Sequence record: PQ850606.1
Length of the DNA stretch: 41,040 nucleotides
Source of the DNA: Escherichia phage HeidiAbel_Bas97
Reading direction: 5' to 3' (one strand)
Part shown: piece after piece, positions 4,636-40,358 of the stretch
Numbering within the stretch: position 1 is the first letter of the stretch
Layout of the letters: each line of letters starts with the position of its first letter
Notes under the pieces: model-generated
Database searches by the model: none
What the model was told of the DNA's origin: nothing
Seen by the model: only the letters and a program-made list of their open reading frames with translations
Translations under genes and position numbers: made by a program

Positions 4636-6661
4636 CATCATTGGGGCCGAATTTACCCGCAAATCTGACAGCAAAACGCTGCCTGATTTCAACAAAGGCG
4701 GGCTGGTGCGCACTATGGAAGTGCGCAAGTTTGACACCGAAAAACGCACCGTAGAACTGGCTTTTTCATCCGAAATCGAGGTTGAACGCTGGTACGGTAT
4801 CGAAATTCTGGACCATTCGCCGGAAAGCGTGCGCCTGGACCGTCTGCGTGACGGTGGGGCGCTGCTGGTTGACCACGATTGGACTGACCAGGTGGGCGTT
4901 GTTGAATCCGTCAGCATTGACGCTGACCGCCGGGGGCGGGCCGTGGTGCGCTTTGGCCGAAGTGCACGCGCTGACGAGATTTTCCAGGACATCGTTGACG
5001 GCATTCGCAAGCATGTTTCCGTGGGCTACCGCGTGTTAGCGGCCAAGCTACAGGAAACGCGTGACGAGTGGCAGGATGTCTATCGCATCACTGAATGGGA
5101 ACCTTACGAAATTTCAATTGTGAGTGTTCCCGCTGACGCCAGCGTTGGCGTTGGGCGTGCGTTTGACAAACCCCAAGAAGAACAACGCGGCAGCAAATCC
5201 GATACTGCGGGCACCGTAGAGGTTCCAGCACCAACAAATATTGCATCTGAGGGCATTAGAATGGAAAAAATTCTGCGCGACGCAGCCGGTAACCTGGTGC
5301 GCGCAATGGTAGACGAAAAAGGCAACATCACGCAGGTTCTGGAAATGCTGGAACGTGCTGGCGATGATGCGCGCAACGCTGAACAGCGTGGCCGTGAAGC
5401 CGAAAAGGCGCGTGTTCGTTCCATCACTGAAATGGGCGAGAAGTACAACGCACGTGACCTGGCTTTGAAAGCTATTGGCGAAGGCACCACCGCCGAAGAT
5501 TTCCAGCGTTCCTTGCTGGACCACCTGAACAAGCCGAAAGACCCGGCACAACCGGCTGATGGCACCCGTTCCGGCAGCAAGCCGCTGTCAGAAATGCCGT
5601 CCAGCGTGATTGGTATGTCTGACAAAGACATCCGCCGCTATAGCATTTTCAACGTGGTTCGCGCGCTGGCTAACCCGAACGATGCAGCCGCACAGCGTGC
5701 CGCAGCGTTTGAAATCGAATGCAGCCACGCAGCGCAACAGCAGTATGGCCGCAGTGCAAAAGGCATCCTGATCCCCGACGATGTTCTGCGCGCATTCAAC
5801 GCTGGTGGCGCACCGAACACCCCGGCAGGTGCACAGACCGGTTCCAACCTGGTTGGCACTGACTTTATGGCCAGTTCGTTCATCGACCTGCTGCGCCCGC
5901 GTACCACCATCATGCGCCTGGCGCGTACTATGGGCGGCCTGGTTGGTAACGTTGAAATTCCGAAACAGACTGGCGGCGCTACTGCCTACTGGATTGGTGA
6001 AGGTGATGACGCAACCGAAACCACGCCGACCATCGGCCAGCTTGGTTTGTCACCGAAAACCGTTGCGGCTTACACCGACATTACCCGCCGCCTGCTGATG
6101 CAATCCACCCCTGACGCGGAAGCTATCGTGCGCGGTGACCTGGTGGCAGCTATCGCGCAGGCGATTGATTACGCTGGTTACTACGGCACCGGCACCAGCA
6201 ACCAGCCGCTGGGCCTGGCGAACTACACCGGCATTAATGCGGTAGACTTCGCAGCAGACAACCCGACTTATGCGGAACTGGTGCAGATGGAAACCGAAAT
6301 TGCGGCAGACAACGCAGACGTGAACAACATGGCGTATGTGTTGAACGCGCGTGGCCGTGGTGCAGCGAAAACCACGCCGAAGTTTGCCAGCGGTTCTTCC
6401 GTTGCTGACGCTGGCGTGATTTGGGAGCCGGGCAACACCCTGAACGGTTACCGCGCCGAAGTTACCAACCAGGTGCAGGATGGTGACGTGTTCTTTGGCA
6501 ACTTCGCTGACCTGGTGGTTGGTATGTGGGGCGGCCTGGACATGACGGTTGACCCGTACAGCCTGAGCAAATCCGGCGGCCTGCGCATCGTGGTGTTCCA
6601 GGACGTGGATTTTGCGGTGCGCCGCGTTGAATCCTTCGCGCTTGGCCGCAACGCAGAATAA
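4613..6661 (+). CDS. Prohead protease, scaffold (delta-like) and major capsid protein (HK97 fold) in one ORF
   Basis: N-terminal ~190 aa resemble an HK97-type prohead protease; central charged coiled-coil segment; C-terminal ~400 aa resemble an HK97-fold capsid protein; internal in-frame ATG at 5261 with a GAGGG RBS. Confidence 0.75.
   Translation: MQKNPLNSIIGAEFTRKSDSKTLPDFNKGGLVRTMEVRKFDTEKRTVELAFSSEIEVERWYGIEILDHSPESVRLDRLRDGGALLVDHDWTDQVGVVESVSIDADRRGRAVVRFGRSARADEIFQDIVDGIRKHVSVGYRVLAAKLQETRDEWQDVYRITEWEPYEISIVSVPADASVGVGRAFDKPQEEQRGSKSDTAGTVEVPAPTNIASEGIRMEKILRDAAGNLVRAMVDEKGNITQVLEMLERAGDDARNAEQRGREAEKARVRSITEMGEKYNARDLALKAIGEGTTAEDFQRSLLDHLNKPKDPAQPADGTRSGSKPLSEMPSSVIGMSDKDIRRYSIFNVVRALANPNDAAAQRAAAFEIECSHAAQQQYGRSAKGILIPDDVLRAFNAGGAPNTPAGAQTGSNLVGTDFMASSFIDLLRPRTTIMRLARTMGGLVGNVEIPKQTGGATAYWIGEGDDATETTPTIGQLGLSPKTVAAYTDITRRLLMQSTPDAEAIVRGDLVAAIAQAIDYAGYYGTGTSNQPLGLANYTGINAVDFAADNPTYAELVQMETEIAADNADVNNMAYVLNARGRGAAKTTPKFASGSSVADAGVIWEPGNTLNGYRAEVTNQVQDGDVFFGNFADLVVGMWGGLDMTVDPYSLSKSGGLRIVVFQDVDFAVRRVESFALGRNAE
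5165..5181 (+). promoter_or_regulatory. Conserved 17-mer GACAAACCCCAAGAAGA, copy 2
   Basis: Exact match; 80 nt upstream of the internal in-frame ATG at 5261. Confidence 0.45.
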
Positions 6662-7371: not shown

Positions 7372-7703
7372 TGCCCGCGCCGTCCTGGGAAAACCTGGAC
7401 GACTTTTTTGACCTTGACACCAACGGCGGGTTTGCATTTCCCACCGTTATTCATTCGCAAAAAGGTTGGACCAGAACAATTAACGCCATCTTTGATGATC
7501 CGTACTTCAACGCGCAAATTGGCGAGTATGAAGCGGACACCAGCAGCCCGCGCATCACGGCAAAGGAATCTGACCTGGCTGGCATCCTGCGTGGTGACAC
7601 AATCATTGTGGCCGGTGAAACCTTCGACGTGCTGGCATCCCCGGAACAGGATGGCACAGGCACTGCCGTGGTGAGGATGACGCGCCAAGATGCTGCACTT
7701 TGA
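7371..7703 (+). CDS. Putative head-tail joining / head closure protein
   Basis: Position plus conserved C-terminal pattern (RGDTIIVAGETFDV...DGTGTAVV) typical of phage head-tail joining proteins. Confidence 0.5.
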   Translation: MPAPSWENLDDFFDLDTNGGFAFPTVIHSQKGWTRTINAIFDDPYFNAQIGEYEADTSSPRITAKESDLAGILRGDTIIVAGETFDVLASPEQDGTGTAVVRMTRQDAAL

Positions 7704-9466: not shown

Positions 9467-9483
9467 GACAAACCCCAAGAAGA
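9467..9483 (+). promoter_or_regulatory. Conserved 17-mer GACAAACCCCAAGAAGA, copy 3
   Basis: Exact match in the V-W intergenic gap, 34 nt upstream of the W ATG. Confidence 0.45.
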
Positions 9484-9855: not shown

Positions 9856-10758
9856 ATGGCCGGTTCTTACACCGTTATTGACTTATCGCAGTTGCCAGCG
9901 CCAACCATCGTTGAACAACTGAGCTTTGAAACAATCCTGGCGGAAATGATTGCTGACCTGCAAGCGCGTGACAGCACGTTTACTGCGCTGGTGGAGTCTG
10001 ACCCCGCTTATAAAATCCTGGAGGTATGCGCGTTTCGTGAACTGCTGGTGCGCCAGCGCGCAAACGAAGAAGCCAAAGCCGTTATGCTGGCCTATGCCAG
10101 CGGCACTGACCTGGACCAGCTAGGGGCCAACGTTGGCGTGAAACGCCTGGTTATCCGACCCGCAGACCCTAACGCGGTGCCGCCAGTTCCGGCAGTCATG
10201 GAAAGTGACAACGAATTCCGCGCACGAATCCAGCTTGCACCGGAAGGCTACACCACGGCAGGTTCCGAAGGCAGTTACGCGTTCCACGCTTTGGGCGCTG
10301 ACGCTGACGTTAAGGACGTGCAGCCCACCAGCCCGACGCCTGGCCACGTGGTCGTTTATGTTCTGTCACGCACTGGCGACGGAGCAGCGCCACAACCATT
10401 GTTGGACAAGGTGAACGCTACGCTGACCAAAGAAGAAGTGCGACCGCTGACCGACAACGTGACGGTCCAATCCGCGCAGATCATCACCTACACCATCAGC
10501 GCGGAACTAACCCTGCTGCCTGGCCCTGATTCAGAAGTGGTGCGCCAGGCCGCGTTTGACGCCGTGGCGGCATACGCCGAAGGCCAGCGCCGCATTGGCT
10601 ATGATGTCACGATGTCGGGCTTGTATCGCGCATTGCATCAGCCAGGTGTGCAGAACGTCAAACTGACTGCGCCAACCGTTTCCCTGGTGTTGGGTGACGG
10701 ACAGGCCAGCTACTGCACTGGCATAACTGTGACCGTGGCAGGTGAAACAGATGTCTGA
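9856..10758 (+). CDS. J: Baseplate protein J
   Basis: 300 aa, P2 gpJ-like, in the conserved W-J-I order. Confidence 0.85.
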   Translation: MAGSYTVIDLSQLPAPTIVEQLSFETILAEMIADLQARDSTFTALVESDPAYKILEVCAFRELLVRQRANEEAKAVMLAYASGTDLDQLGANVGVKRLVIRPADPNAVPPVPAVMESDNEFRARIQLAPEGYTTAGSEGSYAFHALGADADVKDVQPTSPTPGHVVVYVLSRTGDGAAPQPLLDKVNATLTKEEVRPLTDNVTVQSAQIITYTISAELTLLPGPDSEVVRQAAFDAVAAYAEGQRRIGYDVTMSGLYRALHQPGVQNVKLTAPTVSLVLGDGQASYCTGITVTVAGETDV

Positions 10759-13922: not shown

Positions 13923-13939
13923 GACAAACCCCAAGAAGA
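13923..13939 (+). promoter_or_regulatory. Conserved 17-mer GACAAACCCCAAGAAGA, copy 4
   Basis: Exact match just after the terminator at 13897-13920, 73 nt upstream of the sheath ATG. Confidence 0.45.
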
Positions 13940-15952: not shown

Positions 15953-15977
15953 GGCCAGTCATTTGGCTGGCCATTTT
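15953..15977 (+). terminator. Putative attenuator hairpin after the tail tube gene
   Basis: GGCCAG-TCATTTGG-CTGGCC then ATTTTC; weak T tract. Confidence 0.35.
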
Positions 15978-16005
15978 CAACAATCATTGTTTAAGGCGAT
16001 AAGAA

Positions 16006-18779: not shown

Positions 18780-19186
18780 CCAGTTTCACGATTTTAACCG
18801 GGCAGACCAACATCATGATGATGTTGGGCGGTTTCCAGTTCTGCATCCTTACTGCGGCATATCAGGAACTGAACCGCCACAGCGAATATAAGTGGCCATC
18901 GCAGCACCGCTTTGGCCAGCGCCCATCATCGCAATTCGTGGGCATCGGAGAGGAAACAATCACCCTGGCTGGCATCATTTACCCTGAATACCGTGGCGGG
19001 TTTCAGCAGGTGGAGCAAATGCGCAGCATGGCTGGCCGTGGTCAGCCGCTGTTGCTGGTTGATGGCCTGGGCAAACTGTGGGGCCGTTGGGTGATTGAAG
19101 TTATTGACGAAAAACAATCATTGTTTGCGGCGTTCGGTGCACCGCGCAAACAGGAATTCAATTTGCAACTGCGGCGGTTCAACTGA
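18776..19186 (+). CDS. U: Tail protein U
   Basis: 136 aa, ATGA overlap with the tape measure gene; P2 T-U-X-D order. Confidence 0.8.
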   Translation: MTSFTILTGQTNIMMMLGGFQFCILTAAYQELNRHSEYKWPSQHRFGQRPSSQFVGIGEETITLAGIIYPEYRGGFQQVEQMRSMAGRGQPLLLVDGLGKLWGRWVIEVIDEKQSLFAAFGAPRKQEFNLQLRRFN

Positions 19187-19395: not shown

Positions 19396-20492
19396 CAGGA
19401 ATTGCGCCAGCGTTTCGCGTGCTGGCCAACGGCGGTGACATCACCGCCAAAATCAATGAACGCCTGATAAGTCTTAGCCTGTCCGATGGCGTGGGGCTGG
19501 AATCTGACACGCTGGAAATTAGCCTGGCGGATGATGAACCGGCTAACCCAATCCAGATGCCGGAAACCGGCGCAGAACTGGAACTGTTCCTGGGTTATGA
19601 CAACTGGACACAGCGCATGGGCCTGTTCATCTGTGACGAAGTTGAACTGGCTGGCTGGCCAGGCACCATGACCATCAGGGCGCGTGCTGCCACCTATGAC
19701 AAGTCAAAGGGCGGCAAAACCGACCTGCAAACGCAGAAATCACGTAGCTGGACCAAAGGCACGAAGTTTGGCGACATGGTGAAGAAGATAGCCAGCGAAC
19801 ACGGCATGGAATCCGCCGTGTCAGAAAGCATGGCCAAAATCACCCTGCCCCATACTGACCAGGCGGATGAATCTGACCTGAACCTGTTGCTGCGCCTGGC
19901 CAAGAAATATGACGGCGTAGTGAAGCCATCAGGCGGCAAAATCACGGTCACGAAGCGTGGCGAAGGCAAGACGGCCAGCGGTGAAGAACTGCCAACCATC
20001 ACGCTGACGGCGCAGGATTGCACCGCATTCAGGCTGACCAGCCAGAAGCGCGAAAACGCAGGCACGGTGGTAGCTTACTACCAGATGACGAAGAAGGCCG
20101 CGCGCAACGAAGTGAAGGTGGGCGAAGGTGAGCCGGTCAAACGGATTGGCAAATACTACCCAACGCAGGCAATGGCCCTGGACGCTGCAAAAGCAGAACT
20201 GGCCAAGCGCCAGCGCAACCAGGTGACCGTTGCCGTGACGCTGCCGGGTGACCCATCCATTGCCGCAGAATGCAAACTGGTGCTGGTTGGGTTCCGTGAT
20301 GGCATTGATGGGGAATGGCTGATTACCCGCGCAGATCACCGGCTGGATGACAACGGTTATTCGTGCGACGTGGAAGCAACAAAGCCGAACAGCGAAGAAG
20401 AACCGAAGGTGGAAGTTATCGAGCGCAAGAAGCCGCAAGAAAGCGACCCGCCTGACGATGATGGACCTGGGCACGTCATTGAAGAAAAATAG
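19386..20492 (+). CDS. D: Late control / tail protein D
   Basis: 368 aa, GTG start overlapping X; last gene of the P2-like tail operon. Confidence 0.85.
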   Translation: MGLTGIAPAFRVLANGGDITAKINERLISLSLSDGVGLESDTLEISLADDEPANPIQMPETGAELELFLGYDNWTQRMGLFICDEVELAGWPGTMTIRARAATYDKSKGGKTDLQTQKSRSWTKGTKFGDMVKKIASEHGMESAVSESMAKITLPHTDQADESDLNLLLRLAKKYDGVVKPSGGKITVTKRGEGKTASGEELPTITLTAQDCTAFRLTSQKRENAGTVVAYYQMTKKAARNEVKVGEGEPVKRIGKYYPTQAMALDAAKAELAKRQRNQVTVAVTLPGDPSIAAECKLVLVGFRDGIDGEWLITRADHRLDDNGYSCDVEATKPNSEEEPKVEVIERKKPQESDPPDDDGPGHVIEEK

Positions 20493-20504
20493 CAACAAAC
20501 ATTG

Positions 20505-20532
20505 TTGCAATCATTCTACATCATCGTATATC
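20505..20532 (+). promoter_or_regulatory. Putative sigma70-like promoter for the cargo operon (TTGCAA, 16-nt spacer, TATATC), overlapped by the palindrome CAACAAACATTGTTG
   Basis: Hexamer match and spacing in the AT-rich gap after gene D; a GAGG RBS precedes the ATG at 20587. Confidence 0.3.
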
Positions 20533-20586
20533 ATTACCTTAACCGGGCGGAATACCTGCCCGGATTAATAACGAGGTAATGCCCAC

Positions 20587-21288
20587 ATGAACACATCAAA
20601 TAAAACCCTGCTGCAAATACTGGTTGAAGAACTGCCGAAGCGCGGCGGGTGGCCGAAAGGTGCTGTAAAAATCCATCAAGACCATGACGGTGAAACTTGG
20701 GCGTGGTTAAATCACGATGGCACAGAACGGCTATTCAAGCTGGACCAGGTAGCAAAAAACGCAAGGCAATTTGCCAAAGATGAAACAGAAGAAAACATGG
20801 TCACCCGCGACCAGTACGAATCCGCGCTGGCAGAAAAAGAACATCCCTTGCCGTGGGACGAGAAAAACACCGACGCTGACGGCTGGATTTCCTGGCCTGG
20901 CGGTGAATGCCCGGTTGATGGTGACGCAATTGTTGAAGTCAAATACCGGAAACCGAATCCGTACCAATTCAATAATGACAGAGCTGGCGATTTTACATGG
21001 TCACATGATGGCTTTGACGGTGACATCATCGCCTACCGCCTACCACATCCGCACGAAGTCAAAACCGCTGGCATTGATGTGCAGCGCGATGCGGTCAAAT
21101 CCAACGATGCGCAGTTAGAAGCCGATCTGAATGATTGCATTGGGCAGCCGCAAAGCAATGACTATGCGCGTGATGAAATACTTTACGAACTGGCTAACTT
21201 TGCGGCCACTACAAAAACCAGTCTTGACATTGGTGTTGCCACAGAAATTGCAATTTGGCTTTCTGGCAAAGGTTATCGTAAACAATGA
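20587..21288 (+). CDS. Hypothetical acidic protein, first cargo gene
   Basis: 233-aa ORF with GAGG RBS in a lower-GC segment after the tail module; no recognisable motif. Confidence 0.6.
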   Translation: MNTSNKTLLQILVEELPKRGGWPKGAVKIHQDHDGETWAWLNHDGTERLFKLDQVAKNARQFAKDETEENMVTRDQYESALAEKEHPLPWDEKNTDADGWISWPGGECPVDGDAIVEVKYRKPNPYQFNNDRAGDFTWSHDGFDGDIIAYRLPHPHEVKTAGIDVQRDAVKSNDAQLEADLNDCIGQPQSNDYARDEILYELANFAATTKTSLDIGVATEIAIWLSGKGYRKQ

Positions 21289-21368
21289 TTGTTAAAAAAC
21301 GCGATCTGCCCATCATTATTGTATGGGCTTCATTTCTAATCACTTCATTTGTATTGGGGTTTATGTAA

Positions 21369-22244
21369 ATGGCTACTATTGGACAACTCTATAAAGCAGG
21401 TGCCACCGAAGCAAAGCCGCGCAAGGTGTTTTTCGTTCCGCTGGCGGAACTGTATGTGGAAGATGGCTACAACATCCGCGACGTGGACCAGGCGCACGTT
21501 GAAGAATTCCGCGATGCGTACCTGGCCGGTGAATATGTGCCGCCGCTGACCGTGGAAGTGACGCAGCAGGGCATCAAGGTGATTGACGGCCACCACCGCT
21601 TTGCCGGTGCCAAGATGGCCGCAGAAACCGGCCTGGAACTGCGCCTGGAAGTGAACGACATCACCGGCACCAGTGAGGCTGACAAAATCGCGCTGATGGT
21701 TACCAGTAGCCAGGGCAAGCCGCTGGAACCGCTGGAACGCGCCAAAGCCTATGCGCGCCTGAAAGCGCAGGGATGGACCAATGACGAGATAGCCAGGAAG
21801 GTGAAGCGCAGCCCGTCAGACGTGGCAAACATGCTGGCCCTGGCTGAATGCCCGGAACCAATCAAAGACATGGTGCGCGGCGGCCAGATGTCCTACGTGA
21901 CCGCCACCGAACTGACCCGCCAGCACGGCACCGAAGCCGAAGCCGTGGCCGCACAGGCGCTGGAAGAAGCCAAAGCCGCCGGAAAGGATAAAGTAACGAA
22001 GAAATTCACCGAACCGAAGGCACCGAAAGCGCCGAAGGCCAAGCCGGAAGCCATCCAGCCACCGTTCGGCAAAGACAAGCTGACGCGCCTGGCTGACCTG
22101 GCTGTGCAAATCGAACTGGTCCACAGCGATGACAGGCTGGAAGATGCCGAGCCTGACGAATCCATGACCCTGCGCGCACCTGCTGGCGTAGTGCGTGAAT
22201 TCATGGCGCTGGTGGCTGACTACGTGGGCGGGGTGCCGGAATGA
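21369..22244 (+). CDS. ParB/Srx-like N-terminal domain protein with central HTH (IDGHHR motif)
   Basis: VIDGHHRFAGAKMA matches the ParB/sulfiredoxin arginine-finger box; HTH-like WTNDEIARKVKRSPSDVANMLAL; Lys/Pro/Ala-rich linker; acidic C-terminus. Confidence 0.7.
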   Translation: MATIGQLYKAGATEAKPRKVFFVPLAELYVEDGYNIRDVDQAHVEEFRDAYLAGEYVPPLTVEVTQQGIKVIDGHHRFAGAKMAAETGLELRLEVNDITGTSEADKIALMVTSSQGKPLEPLERAKAYARLKAQGWTNDEIARKVKRSPSDVANMLALAECPEPIKDMVRGGQMSYVTATELTRQHGTEAEAVAAQALEEAKAAGKDKVTKKFTEPKAPKAPKAKPEAIQPPFGKDKLTRLADLAVQIELVHSDDRLEDAEPDESMTLRAPAGVVREFMALVADYVGGVPE

Positions 22245-22561
22245 AAGGCGAACTGAAAGCCGGTGGCCTGGCGCTGGTTTACGGGTTGCGCGTCAGACCG
22301 GAAGGGAACGGCAAGTGCGTGCGCCTGATTGAGCTTGCCAGTTACCGGCAATCAGAGTTGCTGGCTATGGCGCTAGGTGAACCAGTCGAACGCTGGTGGC
22401 GGGTTTATGGCCTGCTACCTGGTAATGAAGTTGCGCAGGTACGGGCGCAAAACCTGCTGCCAATCGACGGAGACGATCAGTTTCTGGACAGCGCAACAGG
22501 CGAAGGGCTGAACAGACTTGCTGAACAATTTGGATTCAAACCAGCCGAACTGACGGCGTAA
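22241..22561 (+). CDS. Hypothetical protein, cargo operon
   Basis: ATGA translational coupling to the ParB-like gene; 106 aa. Confidence 0.5.
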   Translation: MKGELKAGGLALVYGLRVRPEGNGKCVRLIELASYRQSELLAMALGEPVERWWRVYGLLPGNEVAQVRAQNLLPIDGDDQFLDSATGEGLNRLAEQFGFKPAELTA

Positions 22562-22570
22562 GGGGTAAGC

Positions 22571-22783
22571 GTGAAACTGACCAAAGCAACAGATAACGGC
22601 TTCAACCTGTGGGTGGTTGAGCATAAGGCACCAGGTGGCGGCATCATCAGAAACATGGTGCAGGTTTCCAGCCAGGATTTTCAGCAGGGCGGCCAGGAAG
22701 TGCGTGACGCGGTGGCGCTTAAATTGCTTGAGGCGCGAACACGATGCAGGGCGCTGGCCATGATACTGCCGCCCATCCAGTAA
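22571..22783 (+). CDS. Hypothetical small protein (GTG start), cargo operon
   Basis: 70-aa ORF followed by a strong terminator hairpin; start uncertain. Confidence 0.3.
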   Translation: MKLTKATDNGFNLWVVEHKAPGGGIIRNMVQVSSQDFQQGGQEVRDAVALKLLEARTRCRALAMILPPIQ

Positions 22784-22789
22784 CCAACA

Positions 22790-22812
22790 GCCCGCCACCT
22801 GGCGGGCTTTCT
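22790..22812. terminator. Rho-independent terminator between the cargo operon and the tRNA 3' end
   Basis: GCCCGCC-ACCT-GGCGGGC stem-loop followed by TTTCTGTT. Confidence 0.6.
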
Positions 22813-22818
22813 GTTGGG

Positions 22819-22895
22819 TGGCGACCCCTACAGGAATCGAACCTGTAACCTACAGCTTAGAAGGCTGTCGCTCTATCCGGTTGAGCTAAGGGGCC
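22819..22895 (-). tRNA. tRNA-Arg (anticodon UCU), 77 nt with encoded CCA
   Basis: Reverse complement folds by hand into a full cloverleaf: 7-bp acceptor stem with one G-U pair, D arm, anticodon loop CUUCUAA, T-loop TTCGATT, discriminator G and CCA. Confidence 0.85.
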
Positions 22896-22939
22896 GTGTA
22901 ATTATGTGGCGTTATTCGCGGTTAAGGTTTTGCACTACC

Positions 22940-22963
22940 ATACCCTAAACCATACCCTAAACC
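22940..22963 (+). repeat. Tandem direct repeat ATACCCTAAACC x2 (putative integrase arm-type sites)
   Basis: Exact 12-bp unit repeated in tandem between the tRNA and int; a related pair lies at 23164-23187. Confidence 0.45.
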
Positions 22964-23163
22964 GTTTTGCCTATCGGCTAAGTGCTTGTAATTCCTCGCT
23001 TATTAACACTGTTGCATTCCGCTTAGAAGGCGGTTACAGTGGCATAATCGCAAGTCATCACAAATCACGCGAACAGCCACTAAGCCACTGCGTTTAAACA
23101 TCATTCTGCATCATCCCCGGCTAAGTGTTTGCGTTCAGATCCTGTTTTGACTTGTGCCGAACC

Positions 23164-23187
23164 GTACCCTAAACCGTACCCAAAAAG
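23164..23187 (+). repeat. Direct repeat GTACCCTAAACC / GTACCCAAAAAG (putative arm-type sites)
   Basis: Same TACCCTAAACC core as 22940-22963, 13 bp upstream of the int start. Confidence 0.4.
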
Positions 23188-23199
23188 GGGGCATAAGCC

Positions 23200-24411
23200 A
23201 TGCTGACAGAACGCCAGATACAGGCGGCCATGCGCGCCGTGACCAGTGAAACAGTGTTGAACGATGGGGCCGCAGGACGTGGCAGCGGAAGCCTGCGCCT
23301 GCGCATCCGTGCCGGGGCCAAAGGGCCGAACGCTACCTGGCAGGCCGTCTGGTGGAACGCCGGAAAACAGACCAGCAAGGCGCTTGGCCGCTACCCGGAT
23401 TTGAGCCTGGCCGACGCGCGCCGGAAGTATGAAACCGAAGTGCGCGACGTGCTGACGGCTGGCCGCGACCCAAACGCAGTGGTTGCAATGGCCGAAAGCC
23501 CGACCATTGAAAAACTGTTCCAGGCTTACATCCAGTACCTGCGCGACAAAGAGACGGCGACCACCCACACATCAGAACATCTGCTGCTGACCGGCAAATA
23601 CAACGCCGCTGATTTGCTTGGCCGCAACACCATTGCGTCAACCATCGAACCTGCCGACATCGCCAACGTGCTGGCCAAAGGCGTGAAGCGTGGCGCACGC
23701 CGAACCACCGACATGCAGCGCACCGCCATGATGGCCGCATTTAATTGGGCGATGAAATCGACACACGATTACACGCAGGAAAACCGCATGGATTGGGGGC
23801 TGAAATATAACCCTGTTGCAGCCGTTCCGCGCGACCAGGCAGCCAACCGCACGCTGGATAGGAACCTGTCAGCGGAGGAAATGAAGCACGTATGGGATAA
23901 CGCGCCGGAACAAAGCGGCGACGTGATGCGCCTGGTGATGTGCACCGGCCAGCGCGTCATTGAAGTCATGCGCATAGCTGGTGCTGACGTGGACCTGAAA
24001 GCCAGGCTGTGGACGATGCCAGCCAGGAAAACAAAGGGCCGCAAGCATACCCACATGGTGCCGCTGACCACGCAGGCGGTTGACATCCTGACCACGCTGA
24101 TTGACCTGTACGGTGACGGTTACCTGTTCCCTGCCCGCGCTGGCGCTAAGGGTGACATTATCGGAATCCCAAGCGTCAGCCGTGGTGCCAGCCGCATGGC
24201 AGGCATTAAGCCGTTCACCCCGCGCGACCTGCGCCGCACCTGGAAGTCACGCGCCGGTGACGCTGGCATTGACAGGTTCACGCGTGACCTTATCCAGCAG
24301 CACGCGCAGACTGACACCGGCAGCAAACATTATGACCGGTTTGACTACCTGCCGCAGATGCGCGAGGCGATGAATAAATGGGAAATATGGTTGCGAAATG
24401 CTATAGCGTGA
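23200..24411 (+). CDS. int: Tyrosine-type site-specific integrase (P4-like, with N-terminal arm-binding domain)
   Basis: 403 aa; N-terminus matches the P4-type integrase arm-binding pattern (LTERQIQAA...LNDGAAGRGSGSLRLRIRAGAKGPNATWQAVWW...LGRYPDLSLADARRK); C-terminal catalytic region with R, H..H and Y; adjacent to a tRNA. Confidence 0.85.
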   Translation: MLTERQIQAAMRAVTSETVLNDGAAGRGSGSLRLRIRAGAKGPNATWQAVWWNAGKQTSKALGRYPDLSLADARRKYETEVRDVLTAGRDPNAVVAMAESPTIEKLFQAYIQYLRDKETATTHTSEHLLLTGKYNAADLLGRNTIASTIEPADIANVLAKGVKRGARRTTDMQRTAMMAAFNWAMKSTHDYTQENRMDWGLKYNPVAAVPRDQAANRTLDRNLSAEEMKHVWDNAPEQSGDVMRLVMCTGQRVIEVMRIAGADVDLKARLWTMPARKTKGRKHTHMVPLTTQAVDILTTLIDLYGDGYLFPARAGAKGDIIGIPSVSRGASRMAGIKPFTPRDLRRTWKSRAGDAGIDRFTRDLIQQHAQTDTGSKHYDRFDYLPQMREAMNKWEIWLRNAIA

Positions 24412-24634
24412 TGTAGAGTTATTTTAAGCAGACGGTGGAGGCGCTCCACGCCGGAGACGTAACCGGCACGCACCGTGATGCGCTTTTGCGAACACTTCCA
24501 ACCCCCAGGGTGTTACCTCGCAACGTGAAAGCGCATCGCAGTGCGACATTCGCACAGACTGGAACTTACCCGACAAGTGATTCCAATAAGGCAGGTGATC
24601 TGTATCTCGCATCACAGCGTCACGTGACACAAAA

Positions 24635-24661: not shown

Positions 24662-25345
24662 TCATTCGTCGCTGCTTTCGTCATCGCCTTCCGGCGTCAT
24701 CGCGCCATGTTCCGGGCAGTGAGGCGGCCCGACTTCCAGCCATTTTTGCGTGACCCGAACCGTGTAGCCACATTCCTGGCATTCACACTTTTTCAGCCTG
24801 GTGGTTTGCTTAGGCTTCGCTGTGGACGCGCCGCCGACCGGTGCAACTTCGATTTCTTCCCCTTCCCCATCGTCACCGCCTTCATCCAGGCCAATGCGCA
24901 GGCGTGGCACCTTTATGGACATGCCACGGTCAAACGTCAGCTTGGCGTGTGGCATCGGGCCAAGTTCGTCCAGGAACGGTTTGACGTACTCTTTGAATTT
25001 CTCGCCAGGCGTGGTGGCGGTCATCGGTCCATTCAGGCCAACAGCCTTGCACACCGTGGCAAACGCACCCTTATGGCCGCAGTCAAAACCAACGGTGGCG
25101 TGCGTCAGTTCGTGCCACAGGTGGTTTGCTACCAGGTACGGTTCCACCTGGTCTGGCATGATGAAAATTTCAAACGTGTTGTCTGAACTGCACTTGCTGT
25201 GCCAGCACTGTGCCGCCGTACTGGAACGCGCGCCGCTGCTGCAAAAGCCAACCGACACGCGGAATTTAGGCATTTCGTAGCCGAATTCTTTAAAGCGCGG
25301 CGCAAACTTCGCCGCCAAAGCATTTAACCAACCTTCACGGTCCAT
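24662..25345 (-). CDS. SprT-like zinc metallopeptidase domain protein with C-terminal zinc ribbon
   Basis: HExxH motif (WHELTHA) in the N-terminal domain; acidic Gly-rich linker; C-terminal CxxC...CPEH zinc-ribbon-like motif. Confidence 0.5.
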   Translation of the reverse strand: MDREGWLNALAAKFAPRFKEFGYEMPKFRVSVGFCSSGARSSTAAQCWHSKCSSDNTFEIFIMPDQVEPYLVANHLWHELTHATVGFDCGHKGAFATVCKAVGLNGPMTATTPGEKFKEYVKPFLDELGPMPHAKLTFDRGMSIKVPRLRIGLDEGGDDGEGEEIEVAPVGGASTAKPKQTTRLKKCECQECGYTVRVTQKWLEVGPPHCPEHGAMTPEGDDESSDE

Positions 25346-25443
25346 ATATATTTCCTCGCAATGCGTTTAAACGTGTTTAGATTATACAAAGCCAAAGAAA
25401 AACCCGCCATAACGGCGGGCTGATTACTTAGAATGATTTGGAA

Positions 25444-26783: not shown

Positions 26784-27773
26784 TTACTGTGCGCCGGTGC
26801 CCATCACCTGGCTGTTTAAATCATCAACGTCCTGCGCATCGCCGTTGGCGTTGGCGCGCTGTTCGTCATATGCGCGGGCGGCTTGCAACAATGATTGTTT
26901 GAATTCATCGCCCAGCTTTTTGCGAATTGCTGGTGGTGTTTTGTCCCAGCATTCCTGCGTGTACTGCTCACCCTGTTCTGTAACGCCGCGCAGCTTGTTG
27001 CGGTAGGCTTCCACCTTCGGATCTAACTTGTTGCCACCCTGAACCCACTGACGCAGCGCCAAACCGTCCTGTGCACTGATGTAGCCAGTTTCACGCCCTA
27101 AGATGCCGCGCAACTCTTCCGGGCACTTCATGACCTGCTGCGCGCTGCCAGAATCCCACATCATCAGGCTGGCGGTCATTTCAAACATCACGTTCTTTTC
27201 CGTCACCGGCATGATGCCTTGCGGTTCATATTCCGTTTTACCGTTGACCTTCACCAGTTTCACTTTTTCACGTGCGCGGATGCAGCAGATGATGTGCATG
27301 TTGGATTGCAACAACGCGTTCATGAAGCGTTTGTGTTCAGCCTTCGCACGGTTCCACTGTGGCTTCATCGGGTTGGCCAGGGTGGCGATTTCTTCGCAGC
27401 CGCCTGTTCCTTCCCATTCGTGGCTGATGGAGTCGATCACCAGCACTTCAACGCCTGCCTGTTCAAATTCGCGGATGGCGTCAATGTATCGCTGCGGGCT
27501 GAAAGGCGGTTCTAAATCACCAATCCAAAACGCGTCCGGGCGTTCTTTCAGTCCAAGTGATTCCTGGATTTTGTCATAAGTGTCATCGCTGGCATACAGT
27601 GAGCCACGGCGGTTTTCAGTATCGAGAAACCCAACCTTTGTGCCGTCACCGTTGGCCAGGCCATATGCCAGCATAAGTGCTGACAGGGTTTTGCCACTGC
27701 CGCTGATACCTGCCAGGCCGATGACCAGGCGCGCGCCTTCACGTTCTGCTTTACGAATATTAATTACTGCCAT
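26784..27773 (-). CDS. Sak4-like RecA-fold ATPase (single-strand annealing / recombination)
   Basis: Walker A GISGSGKT near the N-terminus; ~330 aa; sits between an exonuclease and SSB. Confidence 0.6.
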   Translation of the reverse strand: MAVINIRKAEREGARLVIGLAGISGSGKTLSALMLAYGLANGDGTKVGFLDTENRRGSLYASDDTYDKIQESLGLKERPDAFWIGDLEPPFSPQRYIDAIREFEQAGVEVLVIDSISHEWEGTGGCEEIATLANPMKPQWNRAKAEHKRFMNALLQSNMHIICCIRAREKVKLVKVNGKTEYEPQGIMPVTEKNVMFEMTASLMMWDSGSAQQVMKCPEELRGILGRETGYISAQDGLALRQWVQGGNKLDPKVEAYRNKLRGVTEQGEQYTQECWDKTPPAIRKKLGDEFKQSLLQAARAYDEQRANANGDAQDVDDLNSQVMGTGAQ

Positions 27774-29851: not shown

Positions 29852-31267
29852 ATGGGCGTTGTGCTGCGTGACTATCAACAGGACATTATTGACAAGGGCC
29901 GCCAGGCGATGCGGCGGCATAAAAGAATACTTCTCCAGGCACCGACCGGCGCGGGCAAAACGGCCCTGGCGTCATTCATGGCCGCGCAGACTTCACAGAA
30001 GGGCCAGCAGGTTTGGTTCATTTGTCACCGCGCAGAACTGGTGCTGCAAACCAGCCTGACGTTTCGCAAGTTCGGCATTGACCACGGCTTTATTGCAGCA
30101 GGCTACCCCATGAACCTGCGCGCCGGGGTGCAGGTGTGCAGCATCGACACCCTGAAAAACCGCCTGCATACCCTGCCCGCACCTAAGCTGGCCATCATGG
30201 ACGAAGCGCACCACTGTGGCGCGGCTGGTTGGGCGCGCGTCAACGCCTGGCTGTTTGAAAATGGCGCGTATGTCATCGGCCTGTCAGCTACGCCAAAGCG
30301 CCTGGACGGCACCGGCCTGGATGACCACTTTGATGACATCGTGCTGGGGCCATCGGTGCGCTGGCTGATGGATAACGGCCACCTGTCTGATTATCGCATG
30401 TTCTGCCCGGACATCCCTGACATGAAGGGTGTACGCAAACAGATGGGCGATTTCTCAAAAGGCGAAACCGCCGAGAAGATGGATAAGCCGAAACTAACCG
30501 GCAACATCATCAGCCACTGGCTGAAATACGCCAAAGGGATGAAAACGGTTGGCTTTGCGGTCAACATTGCGCACAGCCGCCACTTAACGCAGGCATTCAT
30601 TGATTCAGGCATCCGCGCCGCACACCTGGACGGCGGCACCGATAAGGCGGAACGCAAGCGCATCATCCAGGACTACGCCAACGACAACCTGGATGTGATT
30701 TTCAACGTGTCGCTGTTCGGTGAAGGTTTCGACCTGTCAGCCATCGCACAGACTGACGTGACGATTGACTGCCTGATTGACGCACAGCCCACACAATCAT
30801 TGTCGCTGGTGTTGCAGAAAGATGGCCGCGTGTTGCGACCGTCGAAAGGCAAAACCGCTATCATCCTGGACCACGCAGGCAATGCGCTGCGTCATGGCTT
30901 CCCTGACGATGAACGGGAATGGTCACTGGCTGGCGATGACAGCGGCAGCAAATCCAGCAGTGCTGGTGGTCCACCGCCGCCAGTCATCTGCAAAGGCTGT
31001 TTCAACGCCATCCGCCGACCACTGCCGCCGAAGTGCCCGCACTGCCAGAAGGAACTACAGGCTGAAGCCAAAGAAATTGAAGTGGCAGAAGGCGAACTGC
31101 GCGAAATGGACGAACGCGCCAAAGAAAGCCTGCGCGCCAAGATGAGGCGCGAAGAAGATGCGTGCAAAGACATTGGCGCACTGACCGCCCTGGCGATGAA
31201 ACGCGGGCTGCCGAACCCATCAGGGTGGGCCATAGCGAAGATGGGCGGAAGAAGATTTAAGCGATGA
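29852..31267 (+). CDS. SF2 DEAH-box helicase with C-terminal zinc ribbon
   Basis: Motif I QAPTGAGKT, motif II MDEAHH, motif III GLSATP; C-terminal CKGC...CPHC. Confidence 0.8.
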   Translation: MGVVLRDYQQDIIDKGRQAMRRHKRILLQAPTGAGKTALASFMAAQTSQKGQQVWFICHRAELVLQTSLTFRKFGIDHGFIAAGYPMNLRAGVQVCSIDTLKNRLHTLPAPKLAIMDEAHHCGAAGWARVNAWLFENGAYVIGLSATPKRLDGTGLDDHFDDIVLGPSVRWLMDNGHLSDYRMFCPDIPDMKGVRKQMGDFSKGETAEKMDKPKLTGNIISHWLKYAKGMKTVGFAVNIAHSRHLTQAFIDSGIRAAHLDGGTDKAERKRIIQDYANDNLDVIFNVSLFGEGFDLSAIAQTDVTIDCLIDAQPTQSLSLVLQKDGRVLRPSKGKTAIILDHAGNALRHGFPDDEREWSLAGDDSGSKSSSAGGPPPPVICKGCFNAIRRPLPPKCPHCQKELQAEAKEIEVAEGELREMDERAKESLRAKMRREEDACKDIGALTALAMKRGLPNPSGWAIAKMGGRRFKR

Positions 31268-38832: not shown

Positions 38833-39267
38833 ATGGAATTACCGCGCACTGTGCAGGAAATAGCTGACGTTATTGGCCGTGAACGTGCGCTTTTTCTTAT
38901 CGGACAACTGCCAAAACTGTGGGTGCCATCGCAGCAGTACCACAAAGTCATCCTGTATGTACCAAAGCGGATTCGACCCAATGACCCGCTGGTGCAAATC
39001 CTGGGGTGGCAGGATGCCAGTAAGATGGTGCAGCACTTCGGGGGTGAAATGCTTCACCCTGCTAACTGTGAATACATTTACCGCCATTTCATTCACCGCA
39101 GCATTAAGCGGATGCACAGCGAAGGAATGGACGCAAAAGCCATTGCGGAACTGCTGGACGTGTCAGAACGCACCGTTAAGCGCCATTGCACTGACAAACC
39201 CCACAAAGACACATCACCTGCAAATGATAACACTCCGCAACGACTACTAACGGCTATGGGGCAATGA
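38833..39267 (+). CDS. Mor/C-family transcription activator (putative late-gene activator)
   Basis: C-terminal HTH (GMDAKAIAELLDVSERTVKRH) and upstream GGEMLHP segment resemble Mu Mor; sits just before the lysis cassette where lambdoid Q sits. Confidence 0.5.
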   Translation: MELPRTVQEIADVIGRERALFLIGQLPKLWVPSQQYHKVILYVPKRIRPNDPLVQILGWQDASKMVQHFGGEMLHPANCEYIYRHFIHRSIKRMHSEGMDAKAIAELLDVSERTVKRHCTDKPHKDTSPANDNTPQRLLTAMGQ

Positions 39268-39878: not shown

Positions 39879-40358
39879 ATGAAAATTTCATCCAACGGGA
39901 TTGCTGTTCTCAAATACTTTGAGGATTGCCACCTTAAGGCATATCCAGACCCTGCCACCGGTGGTGCGCCGTGGACGATTGGATGGGGCCACACAGGGCC
40001 AGAAGTAAAACGCGGCCTGGTGTGGACACAAAAGCAGGCTGATGATGCGCTGGTGTCCGACCTGGCACGATTTGAAAGCGCAGTGAGTGCCGCCGTTCGT
40101 GTTCCGCTGAACCAGGGCCAGTTTGATGCGCTGGTTTCGTTCACTTACAACCTGGGTGAAGGCAATCTGAAATCCAGCACGCTGCTGAAAATGGTCAACG
40201 CTGGCAACTTTGCCGGTGCCGCTGAACAGTTCAAACGCTGGAACAAGGCGAACGGCAAGACGATGCGCGGCCTGACCCGACGCCGTGCCGCTGAACAATG
40301 CTTGTTCCTGGGCATGGGTGGTGCGTCAGCTATTGAACGCGGCGTGGCAGCAGCATGA
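39879..40358 (+). CDS. Phage lysozyme (glycoside hydrolase family 24, T4 lysozyme-like)
   Basis: GH24-like E...D...T pattern (LKYFEDCHLKAYPDPATGGAPWTIGWGHT); ATG 39879 with GAGGA RBS. Confidence 0.9.
   Translation: MKISSNGIAVLKYFEDCHLKAYPDPATGGAPWTIGWGHTGPEVKRGLVWTQKQADDALVSDLARFESAVSAAVRVPLNQGQFDALVSFTYNLGEGNLKSSTLLKMVNAGNFAGAAEQFKRWNKANGKTMRGLTRRRAAEQCLFLGMGGASAIERGVAAA

Follow-up and report, generated by a model that had tools for sequence, protein, structure and literature searches.

In phage P2, the late regulator gene ogr occupies the slot that follows tail gene D, within the order D - ogr - attP - int. In the linear phage-plasmid N15, a ParB-type protein, SopB, serves in partition and reportedly also promotes late gene expression. 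A third relevant case is KorB of the IncP plasmid RK2, a ParB-CTPase (CTP, cytidine triphosphate) and global repressor, whose 13-base-pair (bp) operator, TTTAGCSGCTAAA, has a central G/C (PMC11790492, PMC13584720). Orphan ParB-fold proteins are also widespread in phages where, according to a 2025 survey that left their function unassigned, they bind CTP, adenosine triphosphate (ATP) or guanosine triphosphate (GTP) via the arginine of a GxxR motif, which is required for nucleoside triphosphate (NTP) binding (PMC12704722). We have analyzed a gene of this kind, encoding a 291-amino-acid (aa) ParB-like protein (hereafter ParB), in the 41,040-nucleotide (nt) sequence of Escherichia phage HeidiAbel_Bas97 (PQ850606.1), which we call the window. 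The gene lies after tail gene D, in a segment that it shares with three genes encoding proteins of 233, 106 and 70 aa. As detailed below, ParB is a conserved gene among variable neighbors, a palindrome resembling the KorB operator is dispersed over the genome, and we tentatively favor a KorB-like role for ParB at these sites.

HeidiAbel (Bas97) is a Jilinvirus of the subfamily Iiscvirinae from the BASEL collection, with Alux-21, Salmonella phage PT1, ECOO78, ep3 and ECO1230-10 as close relatives at the DNA level and Arya, KA2-1 and Serratia phage MQ-4 as more distant ones. Comparison of these phages separates the four genes clearly. The ParB-like gene is present in every Iiscvirinae-type genome examined, always in the same slot after D, and its product is 97-99% identical between close relatives (Alux-21, PT1, ECOO78 and ep3), much like the tail proteins U, X and D (96-99%). 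In Arya, MQ-4 and KA2-1, ParB is 50-59% identical to its HeidiAbel counterpart. Since it combines such identity with a constant slot, the ParB gene is, on this evidence, part of the phage backbone and not cargo. The 233-aa protein, by contrast, is only 57-79% identical between the same close relatives, the 106-aa protein is 38-79% identical and unrecognizable in PT1, and the 70-aa protein is 40-93% identical, with homologs in PT1, Alux-21 and MQ-4. The gene order D - X - ParB - 106-aa-like is maintained in Arya and KA2-1, and MQ-4 keeps the order D - ParB - 106-aa-like without the 233-aa gene. In Skatevirus-type phages, homologs of the ParB and 233-aa genes lie ~11 kb apart. By this comparison, the four genes are one core gene plus fast-evolving accessory genes in a conserved Iiscvirinae post-tail slot, and not one cassette. 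Located between D on one side and the attachment region and integrase on the other, the slot resembles the ogr slot of P2, all the more so since MQ-4 carries there, two genes after ParB, a genuine Ogr/Delta zinc-finger gene (25115-25357; PF04606, 1.8e-19). The difference is that the small proteins of the HeidiAbel slot, with a single cysteine each, gave no Pfam hit to PF04606, and the likely late activator of HeidiAbel is encoded elsewhere, at 38833-39267.

These results bear directly on how the segment had been read in a first-pass annotation, namely as a single four-gene cargo operon, situated where temperate phages usually have moron or accessory genes, that might encode one accessory system for superinfection exclusion, anti-phage defense or anti-defense. 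Variability and an accessory character do apply to the 233-aa gene and, less so, to the 106-aa and 70-aa genes; they do not apply to ParB. The one-system reading draws on the strong divergence of three of the four genes between near-identical phages, on the acidic, mosaic 233-aa protein whose modules are fused elsewhere to SaV-like/DUF3310, Lar-type and DUF551 proteins, and on the fact that integration beside the tRNA would put the cassette at a prophage end. It is nevertheless unlikely, since ParB is a core gene, ParB and 233-aa homologs are unlinked in other phages, and PADLOC-DB v2 contains no meaningful match for any of the four proteins (the sole hit, ParB residues 126-156 against PDC-M64B at E = 0.015, covers a generic HTH (helix-turn-helix) stretch). 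The lifestyle of HeidiAbel also argues against it. Plaques are clear and no lysogens were seen according to the published description, whose authors term the lifestyle of the genus enigmatic and report that the phage is very sensitive to restriction-modification systems. Moreover, when 5,426 complete E. coli genomes and 72,556 PLSDB plasmid records were searched by megablast with 19400-24500, the former gave no related integrated DNA and the latter no match, and the search thus gives no sign of a prophage or a plasmid. That the phage is temperate is therefore itself a doubtful premise. What the literature cites as a "prophage" of this group, in E. coli USECESBL382, is a stand-alone phage-sized contig (AATBGZ010000031.1, 42,429 bp) with contiguous tail genes, ParB and integrase; it is thus unintegrated in that assembly, with its attP side intact.

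As for ParB, profile searches strengthen the earlier recognition of a ParB/Srx-like protein with an IDGHHR box and an HTH. The HTH domain matches Pfam PF17762 (HTH_ParB) with E = 7.5e-13 and 48.9 bits (cut-off 22.6), while the N-terminal domain aligns to Spo0J/ParB, with IDGHHR standing where the GERR box is. The GxxR of box II is present as G74-H-H-R77, its arginine being invariant in 32 homologs, and D73, G74, H76 and R77 are all invariant among ParB homologs. The best PDB sequence matches, 1vz0 (8e-11) and Noc 7ol9 (8e-6), span the N-terminal domain and the HTH, and there are local matches to the KorB structures 8qa8 and 1r71. An HHblits match to ParBc is listed for this protein in a published GAPS report. 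A Pfam scan gave no match to the canonical ParB C-terminal dimerization domain, the ParA-binding motif (L/F/I)G(K/R)G(L/F/I) is missing from the N terminus (MATIGQLYKAGATEAKPRK), and there is no ParA-type ATPase among the window open reading frames (ORFs) scanned or in annotated complete relatives. Outside the subfamily, a genome-contig scan with ParB returned lambdoid-type homologs only. The lambdoid and Skatevirus orphan ParB-HTH proteins are true homologs, 44-60% identical over residues 1-210 up to 1-290 and with an invariant DGHHR, which differ in their recognition helix (RSxADVDxHLQLL), in the absence of the dispersed palindrome described below, and in gene position: between a cII-like gene and replication genes in lambdoid phages, and, in Skatevirus, within the structural module, where they belong to a small divergent unit. 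In 31 lambdoid loci, a single GTGACA-N4-TGTCAC palindrome is found ~430 nt 3' of the ParB homolog, which could be the binding site of these homologs or part of an origin.

Could the ParB/Srx domain instead have a nuclease or NTPase activity regulated by NTP, in the manner of Osa, DdrB-like ParB or ParB-methylase, that acts on host or competitor DNA or on nucleotide pools, the HTH serving for targeting only? DGHHR is a generic motif of nuclease-type ParB/Srx proteins, the box III residues of partition ParB are missing, such domains often adjoin late or virion genes in phages (PMC5512222), and the fold can bind ATP, GTP or CTP (PMC12704722). We consider this very unlikely, however, because the best matches are to Spo0J, Noc and KorB rather than nuclease-type members and extend over both the N-terminal domain and the HTH, DdrB-like ParB domains do not have this HTH architecture (PMC5512222), and conserved, cognate-looking palindromes point to site-specific binding.

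These palindromes share the sequence ACAATSATTGT, which ranks first in three (HeidiAbel, ECOO78 and KA2-1) of four complete subfamily genomes in an unbiased scan of all 5+N+5 palindromes. HeidiAbel has six exact and three one-mismatch copies, vs 0.98 expected and a shuffle maximum of 4, and MQ-4 has 12 matches within one mismatch vs 0.8 expected. The 13-bp form reads AACAAT(G/C)ATTGTT and the extended form AACAATSATTGTT. Orthologs of the copies within gene U and within the helicase and AAA_24 genes are retained as their flanks diverge; other copies turn over, yet the number per genome is steady at about 9 to 12. Within 5.3 kb around the ParB gene there are four of the nine copies, two of them (20495 and 21282) flanking the 233-aa gene (Table 1). 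Across six aligned genomes, the copy 5' of the ParB gene hardly changes: its central base is either G or C, and KA2-1 shows a single mismatch. In MQ-4 this copy lies 31 nt ahead of the ParB start codon. A separate hairpin, GGCCAGTC-ATTT-GGCTGGCC, is located within 15953-15990, just 5' of the tail chaperone gene, and is followed 8 nt later by an exact palindrome; MQ-4 has the same hairpin-then-palindrome order 5' of its ParB gene.

Which protein recognizes the palindrome? The palindrome is present in all eight genomes or loci whose ParB has the recognition helix RS(P/A)SDVxNxLALA, and no exact copy was found in ~70 loci with the helix RSxxDV(D/E/N)xH, a co-occurrence that fits ParB as the binder. 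Proteins of the ParB family typically have scattered and largely intragenic 13-bp palindromes, which would be unusual for regulators of the Cro or excisionase type, and to our knowledge neither the sites of Fur, NrdR and LexA nor the P2 Ogr dyad fit. CI was ruled out because ECOO78, which has no CI, keeps the sites. With moderate confidence, we thus consider ParB the most likely binder, with AACAATCATTGTT as its predicted target sequence.

Several points weigh against this assignment and against a KorB-like function. Most copies are intragenic and away from recognizable promoters, and four or five of the intragenic ones read Q-S-L in one frame, so that protein coding helps to keep individual orthologous copies; an enrichment spanning unrelated genes is beyond what coding can explain. 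Phage lineage is a confounder of the co-occurrence between helix type and palindrome, such that another Iiscvirinae protein could bind. Furthermore, no dispersed palindrome array was found in the lambdoid loci or Skatevirus genomes that encode ~50% identical ParB homologs, which makes cross-lineage co-occurrence unusable for tying ParB to the site. Within ParB, the box III CTP-hydrolysis residues ENLQR (ENxxR) are replaced by TSSQG, in the segment MVTSSQGKPL (TSSQG also in the lambdoid homologs, RANDGT in MQ-4 and Arya), the TIGR00180 score of 47.9 bits lies below the cut-off of 58.45, and PF02195 (ParBc) is absent from hmmscan at E <= 1. No KorA- or TrbA-like HTH partner was identified and, lastly, we infer palindrome binding by ParB from sequence. 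It is conceivable, then, that the palindromes belong to another phage HTH protein or to a host protein, with ParB acting locally or in replication. This would suit the lambdoid homologs, which lie directly 5' of replication genes and, like those of Skatevirus, lack a dispersed array, and HeidiAbel does encode several further small HTH proteins. We find it doubtful in view of the site kept immediately 5' of the ParB gene in six of six genomes, the exclusion of CI, the existence of another candidate motif for the late activator (GACAAACCCCAAGAAGA, see below) and the ParB-like character of the sites themselves.

Our preferred reading, which we put forward tentatively, is that ParB is an orphan regulator or genome organizer working like KorB, beside variable accessory genes. 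A ParB dimer would bind the 13-bp palindrome and, by putative NTP-dependent clamping at nine sites, would act as KorB or Noc do, regulating or organizing phage DNA rather than partitioning it. Such regulation would include autoregulation of its own gene string. The 106-aa protein, translationally coupled to ParB, would be its probable partner, and the 233-aa gene, whose product, made of promiscuous phage modules, probably serves a host- or competitor-directed role, would be a moron-like insert that separates the ParB gene from the upstream site. A bolder version, in which ParB is an NTP switch that globally organizes the genome or times transcription of a small virulent-behaving myovirus from about nine sites, with a KOW-like partner instead of ParA/KorA, and controls a hypervariable accessory gene, is harder to credit and we regard it as rather doubtful; if true, no KorB-type clamp regulator would have been described earlier from a lytic phage.

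Both KorB and HeidiAbel ParB have a ParB-type N-terminal domain followed by an HTH, and over both replicons, of 40-60 kb, ~9-12 copies of a 13-bp palindrome are scattered, with G/C at its center and one copy fronting the protein's own operon. The differences are that HeidiAbel has no KorA/TrbA-type HTH partner, the coupled gene encoding an SH3-like barrel, and no IncC/ParA; that box III is not conserved; and that the replicon is a virulent-behaving myovirus genome and not a plasmid, in which binding and repression by ParB are putative. Spo0J and Noc give the best sequence matches over the N-terminal domain and HTH, share the GxxR arginine, and likewise have dispersed, partly intragenic palindromic sites clustering near their gene. 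In contrast to them, HeidiAbel ParB scores below the TIGR00180 cut-off, has TSSQG for ENLQR, and comes without ParA, a ParA-binding motif or a match to the canonical C-terminal dimerization domain. N15 SopB is similar as a ParB-type phage protein with centromere-like palindromes scattered over the genome, and its effect on phage gene expression is one that we only propose for HeidiAbel ParB; N15 differs in having SopA and a proven plasmid prophage state, neither of which was found for HeidiAbel.

This last comparison raises the possibility that, with no ParA encoded alongside, ParB and its palindromes provide centromere-like maintenance of an unintegrated genome, be it a plasmid prophage or a genome persisting in a pseudolysogenic or carrier state. 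Dispersed 13-bp palindromes clustered round parB are indeed the classical parS layout, and in the sole E. coli assembly with such a phage, it forms a 42.4-kb contig by itself, with an intact attP side, although this contig could be a contaminating lytic phage. HeidiAbel and its complete relatives, however, have no ParA-type ATPase, the ParA-binding motif LG[KR]GL is missing from the ParB N terminus, and there is no match in 72,556 plasmid records. Moreover, ECOO78 and ep3 have lost their lysogeny genes and retain ParB at 97% identity, which suggests that ParB is needed in lytic growth; in ECOO78, where the cI-like repressor and integrase are absent, six exact palindrome copies are kept as well. 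Maintenance is thus improbable, and regulation or organization in the manner of KorB remains the reading that we prefer. If the link between ParB and the palindrome holds, the KorB/Noc type of ParB function would extend from plasmids and chromosomes to lytic phage genomes, and might bear on the unexplained Jilinvirus lifestyle; if it fails, the region holds ordinary phage genes with poor annotation. HeidiAbel makes a tractable case, being cultivable and growing on E. coli K-12, with a conserved ParB-HTH gene and nine candidate sites.

The accessory proteins gave few leads in databases: Pfam, NCBIfam and PADLOC returned nothing for the 233-aa, 106-aa and 70-aa proteins (the basic 70-aa protein has no family match), and a PDB sequence search returned nothing for the first two. 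The 233-aa protein, which has no fold match either, has 1,341 homologs in a 5.8-billion-protein collection, the best of which is 75% identical, and most are encoded on 40-43 kb contigs. When aligned, these proteins form a mosaic that combines conserved motifs with alternative cassettes. Certain variants terminate in DUF3310, and the middle module is fused elsewhere in phages to DUF551, SaV-like, KOW and Lar-type proteins. With its low GC content at third codon positions (GC3), mosaic make-up, hairpins and absence from MQ-4, the 233-aa gene looks like a moron-like accessory gene. It resembles lambdoid morons in its foreign GC3, flanking hairpins and variable presence; a hairpin follows it, and its promoter is only a 9/12 match within a conserved block. 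Its hypervariable product is a reasonable candidate for host or competitor interaction. We also considered that it might be a DNA-mimic anti-restriction factor, which is unlikely given HeidiAbel's high susceptibility to restriction-modification systems, a sensitivity that argues against broad anti-restriction. For the 106-aa protein, structure modeling was more productive: as modeled, it is an SH3/KOW-like barrel. The "ATPase" label borne by its homologs in ECOO78, ep3, Alux-21 and KA2-1 is not supported by this fold. Its ends (MKGELKAGGLALV..., NLLPIDGDD and KPAELTA) are near-invariant in 38 homologs while the middle is replaced, an arrangement that would allow cassette exchange by recombination.

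The four ORFs, the end of D, the tRNA and the integrase all lie where the first-pass annotation had placed them (Table 1), and the window ORFs agree exactly, in coordinates and protein sequences, with the published gene-by-gene annotation in Data S2 of the HeidiAbel paper (CDS_0027, 20586-21288, 233 aa, identical sequence; CDS_0028, 21368-22244; CDS_0029, 22240-22561; CDS_0030, 22570-22783). As had been remarked, no structural role is assigned to any of the four. Two other ORFs have no support as genes: a published 35-aa coding sequence at 20460-20568, which overlaps the conserved intergenic block, and a 127-aa ORF on the - strand (22415-22798), which overlaps the 106-aa and 70-aa genes. The description of the segment as a lower-GC stretch of four translationally coupled genes with its own promoter-like sequence and a strong terminator next to the tRNA survives in parts. 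Lower GC characterizes only the 233-aa gene with the sequence flanking it (GC 0.49, GC3 0.47), not the ParB gene (GC 0.60, GC3 0.70); GC3 is 0.65-0.70 for D, ParB and the integrase gene. The only overlap is the ATGA of the ParB/106-aa junction, whereas 9 nt separate the 106-aa and 70-aa genes, and an 80-nt spacer, with a palindrome and a hairpin, separates the 233-aa and ParB genes. The promoter-like match is at chance level (1 found vs 1.5 expected), although the intergenic region around it, between D and the 233-aa gene, is conserved across the subfamily, with a hairpin and an invariant block, ATATCATTA, that holds the second promoter hexamer and is found unchanged in six genomes including MQ-4. 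The terminator next to the tRNA is borne out, its hairpin being the most stable among the four folded.

The hairpins on both sides of the 233-aa gene are conserved with compensatory changes. In the upstream one, CCGGGC/GCCCGG alternates with CCCGGC/GCCGGG, and the MQ-4 version is followed by TTTTT, which identifies it as an intrinsic terminator of the tail operon. In the downstream one, for which a 70-nt stretch folds at -15.2 kcal/mol (z = -3.1), such changes are seen in KA2-1 and Arya. The inverted repeat directly after D, which holds one of the one-mismatch palindrome copies, is conserved in ECOO78, PT1 and Arya and has a variant form in KA2-1. An Rfam search of 20000-23600 gave the tRNA as its sole match.

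Table 1. Coordinates of genes, hairpins and repeated motifs in the HeidiAbel window
Feature	Position	Strand	Remarks
Tail gene D	ends 20492		segment begins after it
Inverted repeat GCAACAAACATTGTTGC	20492-20508		directly 3' of D stop; overlaps -35 of promoter-like match
Sigma-70-like promoter match TTGCAA-18-TATCAT	20505-20534	+	9/12 consensus
GC-rich hairpin CCGGGCGG-AATAC-CTGCCCGG	20543-20563	+	5' of 233-aa gene; -18 kcal/mol, z = -3.1
233-aa gene	20587-21288	+	acidic product (pI 4.8); mosaic, fast-evolving, moron-like unit
Terminator-like hairpin GCCCATCA-TTAT-TGTATGGGC then TTCATTTCT	21308-21328	+	3' of 233-aa gene
291-aa ParB-like gene	21369-22244	+	N-terminal ParB/Srx-type domain, ParB HTH, lineage-specific C-terminal region
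106-aa gene	22241-22561	+	modeled SH3-like barrel of KOW/Tudor type; acidic tail
70-aa gene	22571-22783	+	basic protein
Intrinsic-terminator-like hairpin	22789-22808	+	closes gene string; -23.1 kcal/mol, z = -4.5
tRNA-Arg(TCT)	22819-22895	-	
Integrase gene	23200-24411		
Palindrome ACAATCATTGT	7599-7609		exact
Palindrome	10392-10402		one mismatch; orthologous copy in MQ-4
Palindrome	15980-15990		exact, intergenic; 8 nt past terminator-like hairpin, 15 nt ahead of next start codon
Palindrome	19114-19124		exact, within tail gene U; conserved in ECOO78, KA2-1; one mismatch in MQ-4
Palindrome	20495-20505		one mismatch; within inverted repeat after D
Palindrome ACAATGATTGT	21282-21292		exact; overlaps 233-aa stop codon, 5' of ParB gene; candidate operator/parS-like site
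Palindrome	26888-26898		exact; within AAA_24 gene on - strand
Palindrome	30793-30803		exact, within helicase gene; exact in all four genomes despite diverged flanks
Palindrome	40295-40305		one mismatch, lysis region; weakest member; orthologous copy not found
GACAAACCCCAAGAAGA copies	2426-2442, 5165-5181, 9467-9483, 13923-13939, 39193-39209	+	

A second dispersed motif, GACAAACCCCAAGAAGA, is found in four exact copies and one with two mismatches, vs 0.1 expected, always on the late-gene strand, and there is no copy ahead of the four-gene segment. The copy at 13923 comes after a terminator hairpin and that at 39193 lies ahead of the lysis genes, while orthologous copies carry lineage variants, GACAAGCCGCACGAAGA in KA2-1 and GACAAACCCAAAGAAGA in MQ-4. 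This motif is probably a late promoter or activator site. Between the tRNA-Arg and integrase genes, doubled 13-mers, ACC(A/G)TACCCTAAA, are located at 22928-22961 and 23152-23185, 224 bp apart, and are likely to be integrase arm-type sites of the attP region. Finally, 3' of the helicase gene, a 215-aa protein encoded at 31565-32212 matches Pfam Nmad5 (nucleotide modification associated domain 5) at 1.3e-34.

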